A stretch of DNA of 64,000 bases, taken from assembly GCA_963701625.1 (NCBI GenBank), contig CAVPAT010000005.1, positions 3,146 through 67,145 of the forward strand, in the 5' to 3' direction. Of the stretch, positions 1 through 5,220 are shown piece by piece. Positions within the stretch are counted from its first letter, which is position 1. Every line of letters starts with the position of its first letter. This stretch comes from an uncultured Acidimicrobiia bacterium. GTDB lineage: Bacteria; Actinomycetota; Acidimicrobiia; IMCC26256; JAENVU01. A program made the position numbers and the translations under genes. The notes beneath the pieces were generated by a model that worked only from the letters and a program-made list of their open reading frames with translations, ran no database searches and had not been told where the DNA came from.

Positions 1-1184
1 CGGTTTGCCGATGTGGCCCATTTCCTCGACCAGAATGATGGCGGTTTCCTGGTCGAGCACCTGGTTGATGGTCACCATGCTGCCCATCTTCATCAGCGCC
101 TTGATGACTTCGGCGGCCTTGACCGACATCTTGTGGGCCAGCTCGGCCACCGTAATGGTTTCGGGCACCAGCACCTCGCGCACGACCGGCTCGGTCGGTG
201 CATGAAGGTGGTTTCCTCGTTGCTGACTGGATCGGGATTTGCCCTTGCGGCCACGCCAGCCTGTATCGGGTGCGGCGCCGCCACGGGTCTTGAGTCCGCC
301 TTTACGCTTCGCAGCATCGTCTTTCCAGCTGTCGGCTTTTTTGGCTGGCTTTTTGTCGCCTTGGCGCCAGCCGGTTTGTCTGGTTTGTGCAGTGTTTTTT
401 CTGTGGGTGCGGCGGGCGCGGCGGGCGCAGCAGCTTTCTCAGCGGCCGCCAGTTTGGCTGCTTCGCGCGCAGCTTCCGCTTGCTTGCGTAAGGCCTCGCG
501 CTCGGTGCGGGCCTTGGCATCCGCAGCCTGGCGTTCCTGCGCGCCTGGCCACGGCGTTTTTCTTCTTCGCGCCTTGACTTCGGCTTCGTCCAGAATCGAG
601 GCTTTCTTGATACGGGTTGCTTTCTTGACGGCCGTGCAGGCTTCTCCGCTTCTGGCTCTGCGGTCGCTTCCAGGGCGGCCGCAGGGGCTTCAGCGGCGCG
701 CCTCGACCGCAACCGGTTCGACTGCAGCGGGCTCGATCGACTTCAGCTTTCGCCTGAACCGGTTCGGGCGCTGCGACTTCAGCAACCGGTTCGACCACGG
801 GCGCTTCAACCATGGGCTCAACTCTCGACAGGGGCCTGCTCCTCGACCGGAGGGGCGGCTGGCACTTCCGCGCTTGACGTAGACTGCACATCTTGCGCGA
901 CTTCGCACCTGAATAGGTGCGCGCACGCGTTTCCATGATTGGCGGATCCGGTGCTGTCGCTTTGGATTTCACCCGTCTGCTTGCGCGTGATGGTGATCTT
1001 GGTCTTCCGGGCTCGGCTCCACCGCCATGCATCTTGCGCAGATAGTCAAGCAAGTGCGCCTTGTCCGCTTCGGTGACAGGGTCGACGGTACGGTTCCTGT
1101 TTGCTGACACCGCGCCTTGGCAACTGTTCAAGCAACAGCCGGCGGCGGCAGTTTCAGCTCGTACGCAAATTGTTCAACGTTCAT
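1..1184 (-). pseudogene. infB: Translation initiation factor IF-2, N-terminal ~1.2 kb (3' part lies beyond the window start); reading frame broken several times
   Basis: The reverse complement of 1-200 reads [61 protein letters not shown], a typical IF-2 segment before the G domain. The ATG at 1184 gives MNVEQFAYELKLPP. The motif ..EADKAHLLDYLRKMHGG lies in ORF 439..1131. The Ala/Glu/Lys/Pro-rich linker is split over ORFs 302..712, 439..1131 and 690..926, which are in three frames. Confidence 0.85.
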
Positions 1185-2683
1185 GCAATCCTCGTGGCGT
1201 ATCAGCTTCTTGGGCGAACCAGGGCGCGCGCGCGACCATGATCAGTTGTTCGGCGCGTTCGGTTTCCATGGCGGCCATTTCAGTCAGTTCATCCGCTGCC
1301 AGGTCGGCCAGGTCCTCGTGGTGTGGACGCCTTTGCTGGCGAGCTAGCCGCCAGTTTCTGCGTCCATGCCCTCGAGCGACAGCAGGTCGTCCGCGGAGCC
1401 TTCAACCTGCTCCTCGCCCACAATGGCTGCGGTCAGCAGCGCGTTGCGGGCGCGGTTGCGCAGTTCGTTGACCAGTTCTTCGTCGAAGGCCTCGATTTCG
1501 AGCATTTCGTTCAAGCGGAACGTAGGCGACTTCTTCCAGCGTGGAGAAGCCTTCGTCGACCAGAATCTGGGCGACTTCCTCGTCCACATCGAGTTTCTCG
1601 ATGAACAGGGCGAGCGTATTGCCGCTTTCGGTCGACTGCTTCTCTTCGGCCTCTTCGCTCGACATGATGATTGATGGTCCAGCCGGTCAGTTCGGACGCC
1701 AGGCGCACGTTCTGACCGCCGCGGCCGATGGCCATCGCCAGGTTGTCCTCGTCCACCACCACGTCCATGCTGTGCTTGTCTTCGTCCACCACGATGGAGC
1801 TGACTTCGGCCGGCGCCAGCGCGTTGATGACGAACTGCGCCGGATCGGCCGACCAGAGGATGATGTCGACGCGCTCGCCGGCCAGTTCGTTGGTCACCGA
1901 GGTGACGCGCGAACCGCGCAGGCCGATGCAGGTACCGATCGGGTCGATGCGCGGATCGTTCGACACCACGGCGATCTTGGCGCGCAGGCCGGGGTCGCGA
2001 GCGGCGGCCTTGATTTCGAGCAGGCCTTCCTCGATTTCCGGCACTTCCAGTTCGAACAGCTTCATGATGAATTCGGGCGCGGTGCGCGACAGCACCACCT
2101 GCGGGCCGCGGGCACCGCGATCGATGCGCAGCAGGTAGGCGCGCACGCGGTCGCCGACGCGCAGGTTTTCCTTGCGGGATCATCTGGTCGCGCGGCAGGA
2201 AGCCTTCGATGCGACCCGATTCGATGATGGCGTTGCCGCGGTCCATGCGCTTCACGACGCCATTGACCAGATGTTCCTTGCGGTCAAGGAAGTCGTTGAT
2301 GATCTGCTCGCGCTCGGCATCGCGGATCTTCTGCAGGATGACCTGTTTGGCAGCCTGTGCGCCAATACGGCCGAACTCGATGTTTTCCAGCGGCTCCTCG
2401 ATGTAGTCGCCGATTTCGATATCGGGAATCTTGTCCTGAGCGTCGATCAGCAGAATCTGGTAGCCCTCGGATTCCAGTTCGGCTTCGGTCACGACCAGCC
2501 AGCGGCGGAAGGATTCGTATTCACCGGTTTCGCGATCAATCGATACGCGCACGTCGACTCTTCCTTGAAGCGCTTCTTGGTGGCGGAGGCGAGGGCCTGC
2601 TCCAGGGCGCTCGAACACGACTTCCTGTCCACGTTCTTTTCGCGTGCCAGCGCATCGGCCAACATCAACATTTCACGGCTCAT
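1174..2683 (-). pseudogene. nusA: Transcription termination/antitermination factor NusA, with at least 5 frame changes
   Basis: The N-terminus [21 protein letters not shown] is in ORF 2489..2683. The S1 part ..[42 protein letters not shown] is in ORF 1344..2618. The KH domains ..[36 protein letters not shown] are in ORF 1511..2146. C-terminal repeats are in ORFs 1402..1665 and 1344..2618. The last codons ..FAQEADTPRGLHER-TGA overlap the infB ATG. Confidence 0.9.
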
Positions 2684-2704
2684 ATTTCCTCCAGCGCTCG
2701 CTTC

Positions 2705-3123
2705 TTAAACCATGGGTTTGAGGCGAGCAACATCCACATTTCTCAAATCAATCGATACTTCCGATGCCATCGACGATCGTTTCCAGCTGCACCGCATCGT
2801 CCTCCAGACCAACCAACTGGCCGCTGAGGCGCCGCCGGTTATCCATCGGTACCCGCAGTTTCATCCGGGCTCGCCAGCGAAGCGGGCATAGTCCTGTGGC
2901 CTTGACCAGCGGCCGGTCGAGTCCGGGTGAGGACACTTCCAGTCTGTCGTAGTCGATGTTCTCGACGGTGAACCAATGGGTCAGGTGATTGCTCACCTTG
3001 ACGCAGTCGTCAATCGTGATGCCGTCCGGCTTGTCGATGAACAGTCGGATCAGCCCCGCCCGGCACGCTCCAGCATCACCAGCTCGTATCCGAGTCCGGC
3101 CAGAGTCGTTTCAAGCAGCGTGT
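2705..3123 (-). pseudogene. rimP: Ribosome maturation factor RimP, frameshifted
   Basis: The ATG at 3123 gives [22 protein letters not shown] 2748..2996 carries ..[57 protein letters not shown]. The tail DLRNVDVARLKPMV-TAA is in another frame. The gene sits directly upstream of nusA, as in the canonical rimP-nusA-infB operon. Confidence 0.85.
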
Positions 3124-3129
3124 TTAAAT

Positions 3130-3155
3130 CCATGGCCACAAATAAAAAATGGGCG
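3130..3155 (-). terminator. Rho-independent terminator downstream of rluB
   Basis: On the minus strand, the hairpin ATGGGCG-UUU-CGCCCAU (7-bp stem) is followed directly by UUUUUUAUUU. It lies between the rluB stop (3261) and the rimP ATG (3123). It ends only ~7 nt before the rimP start, and no SD sequence is visible for rimP. Confidence 0.6.
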
Positions 3156-3260
3156 AAACGCCCATCTCACGAAAAAGATGCCTCGCCAGAAACGACGAGA
3201 GGAACAAACCCTGTGAATTATAACGAGTTTATTCCCCCCGGTAAATGAATCTGGCTGACT

Positions 3261-4262
3261 TTATGCACCTTCCTGAGGGATCTCCGCCGGTTTTATCATT
3301 TTTTCCAGTTCGCGCATCAAGGCCTTGACTTCAGCCTCGTCCAATTCATGAACCCGGCCCCGTTTCAACTGCGGCGGCAGGCTGAATGGCCCGTAACGAA
3401 CCCGGATCAGACGGCTGACGGTGCACCCCACCGCTTCGATCATGCGGCGCACCTCGCGGTTGCGGCCTTCGAACAGCGTCACGCGATACCAGCGATTGGC
3501 GCCTTCGCCACCGGCATCCGCCAGGCTGGCAAAGCTGGCCGGCTCGTCTTCGAGTTCGATGCCGCTCAACAACTGCTGTTGCGCTTCCAGCGTCAGTTCG
3601 CCGAGCACGCGCACGGCGTAATCGCGCACCAGTTCCACTTGCGCCAGCTTGTTGGCCAGTTCCCCCGAAGTGGTGAATAACAGCAGGCCCGAGGTATTGA
3701 AATCGAGGCGACCGACGGTGATCCAGCGCCCGCCGCGGATACGCGGCAAGGCGTTGAAGACCGAGGGCCGCCCTTCCGGGTCGTCGCGCGAGACGATTTC
3801 CCCCTCTGGCTTCTTGTACATGACGACGCGCGGCGTCCTGGTCGTCGTGAAGCGGACATTCACCAAGCGGCCGCCGATCTTGATCTTGTCGGTCGGCACC
3901 ACGCTCTGCCCGAGATGCGCAGCCACCCCGTTGACGCTGATGCGACCGGCGGCGATCCACTCCTCCATTTCACGCCGCGAGCCGATGCCGGCCTGGGCCA
4001 GCACCTTCTGCAGGCGCTCCGGCTTGGCTTCGGCGAGCGGCCGGCCATCACGGGCGATGCTGCCGCGATTCGCCCGACCGCCGGTATTCGGCGCCGGCTT
4101 GCGGCGTGGTGTTGCTTCCTTTGTCGCCGCTTGGGCAGCGGGCGCCTCGCGGCGCGGTCCGCGACCCCGCGCTGCTTCACCGTTGCGGTTCAACGGCTTT
4201 TCGGCCCGATTTTCGGAACCTGTCGCCTTCGACTGACGAAATGGTGTGCGTTTGGTTTTCAT
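3261..4262 (-). CDS. rluB: 23S rRNA pseudouridine synthase RluB (S4 domain plus RsuA/RluB catalytic domain) with a basic N-terminal extension
   Basis: This is the lower 334 codons of ORF 3261..5099, starting at MKTKRTPF (ATG at 4262, GGAG upstream). It carries ..[31 protein letters not shown].. (S4) and ..[40 protein letters not shown] (pseudouridine synthase motifs). The frame is intact. Confidence 0.9.
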
Positions 4263-4290
4263 TATCCCAGCTCCAGTGTCTGGCTGATGC
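4263..4290. other. Compositional and taxonomic breakpoint (betaproteobacterial-type DNA to actinobacterial-type DNA)
   Basis: Within ~25 nt upstream of the rluB ATG, the thiolase reading frame (..[13 protein letters not shown]) changes to non-homologous HQPDTGAGI and runs into rluB. GC content and codon style change here. Confidence 0.75.
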
Positions 4291-5220
4291 TCGTAGGCGG
4301 CGTGCGCGATGGACTCGCGGTAGCCCCGCTCGGGCGGCGCGACGCCGGCGGCCGAGTCGGTCGCGAAGTCGGGCAGGTCGATGAGCTGGTTCGGATAGCT
4401 CGGGGTGACGGTGCTGACGCCGGTGATGCGCACCGGATCGGTGATGCCGATGGACTTCGCGTAGTCGACGCTGCTGACGATCAGCGCGGCGCCGCCGTCG
4501 GAGGTCGCGCAGATCTCGAGCAGGCGCAGCGGATCCGATACGACCGGCGACGCGGCGACGTCCTCCAAGGTCACGGCCTTGCGGAACCGCGCGTTCGGGT
4601 TCTCGAGACCGTGGCGGGCGTTCTTCACCTTGACCGCGGCGAAGTCCTCCTGGGTCGCACCGAAGAGCTCCATGCGGCGCCGGGCGTAGAGCCCGAAGTA
4701 GGTCGGGTTGGTCGCGCCGAGGAGACGGAAGCGGAGCCAGTCCGGGTCGTCGCCGCGCTCACCCGCGTTCGGGGCGAGGAACCCCTTGGGTGTGGTGTCC
4801 GCACCGACGACCATCGCGACATCGGCCATGCCCGCGAGGATCTGGGCCTGCGCGGATGCCAGTGCAGTCACCCCACTCGCGCACGCGGCGTACGACGACG
4901 AGACCGACGCGCCGTTCCACCCGAGCGCCTTCGCGAACGTCGCGCCGGCGACGTAGCCGGGGTAGCCATTGCGCACGGTGTCCGCGCCGCAGACGAGTTG
5001 GATGTCCTGCCACGCGACGCCGGCATCCGCGAGCGCAGCCTGCGCGGCGGCGACGCCGTACTCGACGAAGTTGCGCCCCCATTTCCCCCACGGGTGCATG
5101 CCGACGCCGAGTACCGCGATCTCTTCGTCCTCTTGCCCCTGCGGGGCGGGCCGGACGGGCCCCGCTGCGCTGGTCCGATCGGCTGCGAGTCCTCGCTCGT
5201 CGCGCTCCGCTCTCGGTCAT
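4283..5220 (-). pseudogene. Thiolase-like / SCP-x type lipid-transfer protein (Ltp-like), 3'-truncated at the breakpoint and frameshifted near the 5' end
   Basis: The upper part of ORF 3261..5099 reads ..[55 protein letters not shown]... It lacks the C-terminal catalytic His/Cys region. The only start (ATG 5220, MTESG..) is in a different frame from the EEIAVLGVG segment. It pairs with the upstream DUF35 gene. Confidence 0.7.

Follow-up and report, generated by a model that had tools for sequence, protein, structure and literature searches.

The DNA analyzed in this study is a 64,000-nt stretch (the window) of contig CAVPAT010000005.1, from the public metagenome-assembled genome (MAG) of an uncultured Acidimicrobiia bacterium, GCA_963701625.1. 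The window covers positions 3146-67145 of this contig, designated C5, which is 394.5 kb long. Within it, betaproteobacterial translation genes meet actinobacterial DNA at one point, inside a thiolase-like gene. Judging from sequence comparison, we hold with high confidence that this junction is an assembly artefact and that the first 7,432 nt of C5 (window 1-4287 and the 3,145 nt to its left) are foreign to the actinobacterial genome. A preliminary description of the same DNA had proposed a chimeric contig or a chimeric read. This proposal was supported by the continuation of the thiolase gene at the end of contig C10, by synteny with relatives, by comparison with 40 relatives, by the redundancy of the foreign genes, by their mosaic make-up and by the ends of contigs C15 and C6.

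The host genome studied (G000; contigs C1, C2, C4, C5, C6, C10 and C15 are named below) is assembled in 15 contigs, 3.62 Mb, with a GC content of ~0.69, and was estimated to be 71% complete and 0.65% contaminated. The junction lies 7,432 nt from the start of C5. Forty relatives of the host were compared, 18 of the same genus, 6 of the same family and 16 of the same order.

The interrupted thiolase gene

The features on the two sides of the junction were as follows, in window positions unless a contig is named.

4287..4288 (C5 7432/7433): very probable chimeric junction, betaproteobacterial on the left and actinobacterial on the right, placed by the alignments to C10 and Azonexaceae
4288..5099, minus strand: 5' two-thirds of an actinobacterial lipid-transfer protein (thiolase-like) gene, NF004715 with 460.6 bits, positions 13-285 of 399
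4288..4391 (C5 7433-7536), plus strand: 104-nt duplicate of the C10 end (C10:44428-44531 of 44531), 102/104 identical, the fork site
4262..4288, minus strand: last 8 codons and stop of betaproteobacterial scpB (ISQTLELG and stop), by alignment to the scpB-rluB junction of L016-L020, L030 and L072
3261..5099, minus strand: false fusion open reading frame (ORF) of 612 amino acids, made of the N-terminal two-thirds of the thiolase, a 9-residue out-of-frame scpB tail and RluB

The preliminary description had the thiolase-like gene losing its C-terminal third at the join, and the match to NF004715 did stop at position 285 of 399. When the whole genome was searched with this model, a match to positions 252-398 was found at C10:44088-44528, running off the end of C10. 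A virtual join of the C10 tail to C5 from 7537 onward gave one open frame ending in VIVRK and a stop codon. The joined ORF matched positions 4-398 of the model with 703.8 bits (cut-off 424), and a full-length match was reached only after this join. The true start of the gene is probably a few codons upstream of 5099. These results showed that the true neighbour of C5:7433 is the C10 end, where the missing C-terminal third of the thiolase is encoded. As in an assembly chimera, the interrupted locus was intact elsewhere in the assembly, at the C10 end.

The same arrangement was seen in relatives. In four same-genus genomes (G005, G012, G015 and G018), the homologue of the C10 tail abuts the homologue of C5 from 7433 onward and overlaps it by ~100 nt, and no match to C5:1-7432 was found at these four loci. 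A DNA search for the 7.4 kb in the 40 relatives found it absent and returned only short matches of 63-77%, which are the conserved cores of the relatives' own infB, nusA, truB and rluB. The relatives were, as for an assembly chimera, unjoined and without the added DNA (4 of 4 same-genus loci; block present in 0 of 40 relatives).

Upstream of the thiolase gene, the intergenic DNA at window ~5119-5217 had dozens of matches of 45-100 nt (77-95%) in same-genus genomes, sometimes in tandem. It resembles a genus-wide small dispersed repeat of the repetitive extragenic palindromic (REP) or miniature inverted-repeat transposable element (MITE) type.

The join and the fusion ORF

Homology to C10 begins at window 4288, and homology to the 3' end of Azonexaceae scpB ends at 4288. 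The junction had been described as abrupt and placed at ~4283; it is abrupt, and the alignments moved it by 4-5 nt, to 4287/4288. It is seamless, with no Ns or adapter remnant. Since the T at 4288 is the single base common to both sources, there is no real microhomology at the join. A nearby gapped resemblance of 13 of 16 positions was rejected as microhomology, being at chance level. Both genes are truncated here, the thiolase by its last 114 model positions and scpB by all but 8 codons.

The DNA upstream of the rluB start aligned, up to window 4288, to the scpB-rluB boundary of eight Azonexaceae genomes. In those genomes the stretch encodes the C-terminus of ScpB (ending in PPLEQISQTLELE and a stop), and the scpB stop overlaps the rluB ATG. 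The window retains only ATCAGCCAGACACTGGAGCTGGGATAA of scpB, which translates to ISQTLELG and a stop.

Two model matches stand in the one ORF of 612 amino acids, residues 1-271 with NF004715 positions 13-285 and residues 361-599 with the RluB model NF007976, which confirmed the earlier description of the ORF as a false fusion. Its Pfam domains were Thiolase_N, S4 and PseudoU_synth_2. The linker peptide HQPDTGAGI comes from reading the final 8 codons of scpB out of frame, that is, in the thiolase frame, and it is also encoded in the same frame in Dechloromonas sp. ARDL1. The ORF exists only because the thiolase frame meets no stop in the 27-nt scpB tail and continues into the rluB frame; it is a chance in-frame read-through and not a real gene. 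Exact-protein look-ups gave no record of either the RluB or the 612-residue fusion in public assemblies.

Genes of the foreign block

To the left of the junction, the window holds the following parts of the foreign block.

3261..4262, minus strand: intact rluB of Azonexaceae type, 333 amino acids, foreign segment A (NF007976, 292.6 bits, cut-off 290; DNA 89-100% identical to L121)
3103..3104: second switch point, in rimP at about codon 10, from L121-like Azonexaceae DNA to G281-like DNA at homologous positions
2781..3133, minus strand: mosaic rimP with at least one frameshift
1216..2683, minus strand: G281-like nusA, broken by five 1-nt indels (frame-intact stretch 94% identical in amino acids to G281 NusA)
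1..1138, minus strand: 5' part of a G281-like infB, frameshifted

The block runs for a further 3,145 nt left of the window to C5 position 1, carrying the remainder of infB, then rbfA, truB and the 5' end of rpsO. It reproduces the Dechloromonas gene order scpB-rluB-rimP-nusA-infB-rbfA-truB-rpsO-pnp. Compared with the rluB-rimP-nusA-infB-rbfA-truB-rpsO-pnp cluster of Azonexaceae/Rhodocyclaceae (Dechloromonas sp. ARDL1, L030), the block has the same order, the same orientation and the same overlap of scpB stop and rluB start. It differs in that its rimP-infB middle is of another lineage and every gene but rluB is frameshifted. The foreign gene, and not that of the host, qualified as RluB, the 23S rRNA pseudouridine(2605) synthase, and it has the S4 and PF00849 domains. 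The host has its own nusA-infB-rbfA-truB-rpsO-pnp at C1:351.9-366.5 kb and its own rluB on C6, with 33-46% identity to the Dechloromonas proteins. The foreign set is therefore redundant.

The foreign spacer between rluB and rimP (~130 nt, window ~3134-3260) hardly varied among six Azonexaceae genomes whose other sequence differs by 10-25%. It holds a TTATAAT box and a GGGCGTTTCGCCC hairpin, after which a T-run directly precedes the rimP start; no tRNA was found in it. The spacer may serve the rimP-nusA-infB operon as a conserved leader or attenuator.

Composition, taxonomy and mobile-element features

The left side had been described as betaproteobacterial with lower GC. The taxonomy was confirmed, and so was the lower GC over most of the side (mostly ~0.56-0.65, against ~0.68-0.72 right of the junction). 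In the final ~500 nt before the junction, the 5' end of rluB, GC is already ~0.68. Tetranucleotide comparison, suggested earlier as a check, placed the windows of C5:1-6000 among the strongest outliers of 1,789 genome windows (z ~11). Taxonomy of the two sides, taken separately, gave an Azonexaceae-type RluB on one side and Actinomycetota on the other. The foreign RluB was 88% identical in amino acids to that of Azonexus sp. SMAG_U15982, 83-86% to those of Dechloromonas MAGs and 94% to those of the metagenome contigs L120 and L121, of which one is from activated sludge. The genes upstream had been read as actinobacterial, and this was borne out: the only full-length match of the thiolase fragment in a plasmid collection was from Nonomuraea (66.7%), the best full-length matches of the host 16S rRNA, encoded on C6, were only Actinomycetota (~85%), and the actinobacterial side was collinear with same-genus relatives. 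Taxonomy and composition switch abruptly at one point, as in an assembly chimera.

The preliminary description had reported no repeats, tRNA or integrase at the join, and the same result was obtained here. ARAGORN found no tRNA around the join, a repeat scan gave chance-level matches only for direct and inverted repeats, and no recombinase was found in the foreign block, whose ORFs are only rluB, rimP, nusA, infB, rbfA, truB and rpsO. No other contig of the assembly carried a betaproteobacterial-to-thiolase junction. Like genomic islands and horizontally acquired DNA, the block is foreign in composition and taxonomy beside native DNA and is absent from relatives. Unlike them, it has no integrase or other recombinase, no tRNA target or attachment site and no flanking direct repeats, and it carries a core translation operon, not accessory genes. 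It also has one border instead of two within host DNA, reaching the first base of C5, and the interrupted host gene is intact elsewhere in the assembly.

These results bear on a real event, namely a recent illegitimate insertion of a piece of betaproteobacterial chromosome (scpB'-rluB-rimP-nusA-infB-rbfA-truB-rpsO and so on) into the thiolase gene of some or all cells, where it would now be decaying. A seamless join without Ns or adapter remnant would fit such an insertion. However, only one junction is present, 7.4 kb from the contig end, the cargo consists of essential translation genes that the host already has, no integrase, tRNA or repeats accompany it, and the block is absent from the 40 relatives. 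We regard a real insertion as extremely unlikely. The narrower claim, that a subpopulation of the soil actinobacterium carries the betaproteobacterial core translation operon of at least 7.4 kb in its lipid-transfer gene through illegitimate recombination without a mobile element, is scarcely credible; were it true, insertion-free cells would yield the C10–C5 path.

Sources of the foreign block

The source of the foreign DNA was searched for among 160 Rhodocyclales loci and then among 400 genomes of the GTDB order of Dechloromonas. From the junction to the start of C5, identity changed along the block as follows.

C5 7432-~6248 (window 4287-~3103), first ~1,185 nt from the junction: scpB tail, rluB, spacer and first ~10 rimP codons; L121/L120, 89-100%
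C5 ~6248-1565, next ~4.7 kb: rest of rimP, nusA and infB; 70-85% to L121, no consistent nearest among the 160 Rhodocyclales loci
C5 ~1565-830: rbfA and 5' part of truB; no good match to either source, 74-80%
C5 ~830-1, last ~830 nt: 3' end of truB and 5' end of rpsO; L121, 93-96%

Among the 400 genomes, the middle part (~6248-1565) matched G281, a genome of another Burkholderiales lineage, with 84% overall and 87-94% in the cores of nusA and infB; the next best genome reached 78%. In G281 these genes are intact, and rimP has no rluB upstream. Given the match to G281, the middle belongs to a real, different lineage and has some errors. Raw-read noise as the cause of its 70-85% identity to Azonexaceae was ruled out by the same match (84-94%). 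Mismatch rates at codon positions 1, 2 and 3 were 0.20, 0.14 and 0.44 in the foreign middle, and 0.04-0.08, 0.02-0.05 and 0.29-0.40 in most relatives. The switch in rimP takes place without any long identical stretch. The return switch in truB was located from identity windows only.

The alignments showed that the foreign tail is a mosaic of two sources, an Azonexaceae-type genome and another Burkholderiales lineage, and the first 7.5 kb of C5 therefore derives from at least three organisms. One transfer event does not account for a mosaic of two or more lineages that switches at homologous positions in rimP, which is a further point against a real insertion. That the source changes at homologous positions of a conserved operon suggests that an assembler or polisher merged reads of different species.

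The rimP switch also has a bearing on whether the artefact arose without a chimeric molecule, through an assembler or polisher error such as a misconnection of graph edges or a scaffolding or gap-filling join. The change from Azonexaceae-type to G281-like DNA at homologous operon positions points to collapse in the graph or consensus. At the actinobacterial/betaproteobacterial join, however, the 1 nt shared and the weak gapped resemblance offer no computable overlap, and no Ns mark a scaffolding join. Such an error as the sole origin is very unlikely. It differs from a chimeric read only in how the artefact arose, and the conclusion that the junction is an artefact is unchanged by it.

Frameshifts and indels

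When compared with Dechloromonas proteins, rimP, nusA, infB, rbfA, truB and rpsO of the foreign block were each split over at least two frames, and rluB was read in one. In the foreign tail, at least 14 frameshifts were found in 6.4 kb (~2.2 per kb). In a multiple alignment, 26 lineage-specific indels of one base and 8 of two bases were counted; most were insertions, and the first 1.39 kb had none. BLAST gap counts overstate the indel density; by multiple alignment, nusA has 5 single-base events. Host DNA near the junction had ~4-5 frameshifts in 22 kb (~0.2 per kb), and the host operon on C1 had ~6-7 in ~8 kb (~0.8 per kb). In the reference genomes, the genes were intact in all. Tail and host share one error type, which is 3-10 times denser in the tail. 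This higher density suggests that the tail has lower read support. The contrast between the broken rimP-nusA-infB and the intact rluB beside them is explained by their origin in different source organisms and by their difference in quality. Location of the 1-nt indels in homopolymers, the classic nanopore signature, was looked for, and no clear association was found.

Within the host, nusA, infB, rpsO, pnp and one thiolase paralogue (C4:126,742-127,880) were each read in two or three separate frames. The assembly therefore has widespread single-base indel errors, which have probably depressed its completeness estimate of 71%.

The abundance of frameshifts in the genes beyond rluB, with rluB intact at the join, could also be expected of inserted DNA in decay. 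Natural pseudogene decay is deletion-biased. The indels of the tail are mostly of 1-2 nt and insertion-biased, like the other errors of the assembly and unlike such decay. A recent insertion of foreign core genes that are now decaying, named in the preliminary description as the alternative, is not needed to account for them.

Four points weigh against our reading of the junction as an artefact. The 1.39 kb of foreign DNA nearest the junction, with rluB, has no 1-nt indels, where ~5 would be expected at the density of the remaining tail, and its read support thus seems to be better than that of the other tail DNA. In the host, frameshift density is uneven (0.2-0.8 per kb), so the contrast with the tail is 3-10-fold and not absolute. 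The fork between C10 and C5 is also what an insertion in a minority of cells, an insertion polymorphism, would give. Finally, the sequencing platform and assembler were deduced from the error type only.

Proposed origin of the artefact

An assembly artefact of this kind would most probably have been seeded by a chimeric read, in which two unrelated fragments were ligated or read as one; this step is proposed because the two sides have just 1 nt in common at the join and both break off within a gene. A long-read metagenome assembler would then have attached a low-coverage, error-rich betaproteobacterial patchwork to the end of the actinobacterial contig. Because the tail is mosaic and dense in errors, it may have been extended and polished with reads of at least two low-abundance Betaproteobacteria. 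The mosaic itself would have arisen where reads of different species were collapsed along conserved genes. Long-read metagenome assembly has a described failure in which chimeric reads link distinct genomes and give rise to chimeric assemblies (bioRxiv 10.1101/2025.09.05.674543, sections 3 and 4.8).

The start of C5 resembles the known chimeric contigs of long-read metagenome assemblies, which arise from chimeric reads or from collapse of conserved regions. It shares with them a sudden shift in taxon and composition at the end of a contig, cut genes, the lack of mobile-element features, a true continuation on another contig and a low-quality tail. There is no difference in kind; the tail of C5 would be a double artefact, a non-homologous join to the host combined with source switching at homologous positions.

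Consequences for use of the assembly

The junction is a matter of data hygiene and very probably not a real biological feature. At the start of C5, a public MAG contains at least 7.4 kb of betaproteobacterial DNA, and C15 and C6 probably end in further foreign tails; none of this was flagged by the contamination estimate of 0.65%. Annotation could call a thiolase–RluB fusion protein of 612 amino acids, or a second, 'decaying' rimP-nusA-infB operon in an actinobacterium could be mistaken for cross-phylum transfer of core genes. In practice, C5:1-7432 should be trimmed and the end of C10 joined to C5:7433.

Other contig ends and related observations

C15:12722-13271 aligned to C2:1-552 with 92.5% identity and 11 gap opens. 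The final 1.33 kb of C15 (13272-14601) has a GC content of 0.45-0.50 and encodes low-GC membrane proteins (a GT2-like C-terminus and a DUF2723/PMT-like protein). This end is a second chimeric contig end, with a proven fork like that of C5. Over the final ~1.6 kb of C6 (~87,550-89,171), GC falls from 0.67-0.70 to 0.35-0.43. This tail contains an XRE-type helix-turn-helix gene and an AAA ATPase fragment, and in the ORF at 87059-87631 (minus strand) a low-GC integrase-arm-like peptide is fused to GC-rich sequence. No partner contig was found for the C6 end, which is probably a third foreign tail. Among the 30 contig ends, C5 and C15 have a proven fork and C6 has a probable third tail. The unrelated foreign tail with the same fork at one other contig end, and probably at a second, also argues against a real insertion at the start of C5.

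Low-GC regions (0.59-0.66) were also present at C1:793,500-798,885 (GC 0.59-0.65) and at C2:91,000-101,621. The end of C1 (5.4 kb) has no clean long ORF. The region on C2 has a large serine recombinase (96392-98098, minus strand) and may be a genuine mobile element. That the low-GC contig ends are rRNA operons was considered and rejected, as only the internal region C6:64-70 kb is such an operon. In this operon, the 23S rRNA match at C6:64,634-68,407 (L116:2635-6408) spans 3,774 nt, compared with a model of 2,925 nt. This implies ~850 nt of inserted sequence in the host 23S rRNA, an intervening sequence or intron.

Rhodocyclales-type rluB was also carried by two MAGs labelled Actinomycetota and Bacteroidota, L064 (JBLNBI010000379.1) and L035 (JBLNBM010000022.1), PRJNA951521. 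Their rluB products showed 67% and 73% amino acid identity, respectively, to the query RluB, and the contigs that carry them are probably binning contaminants.

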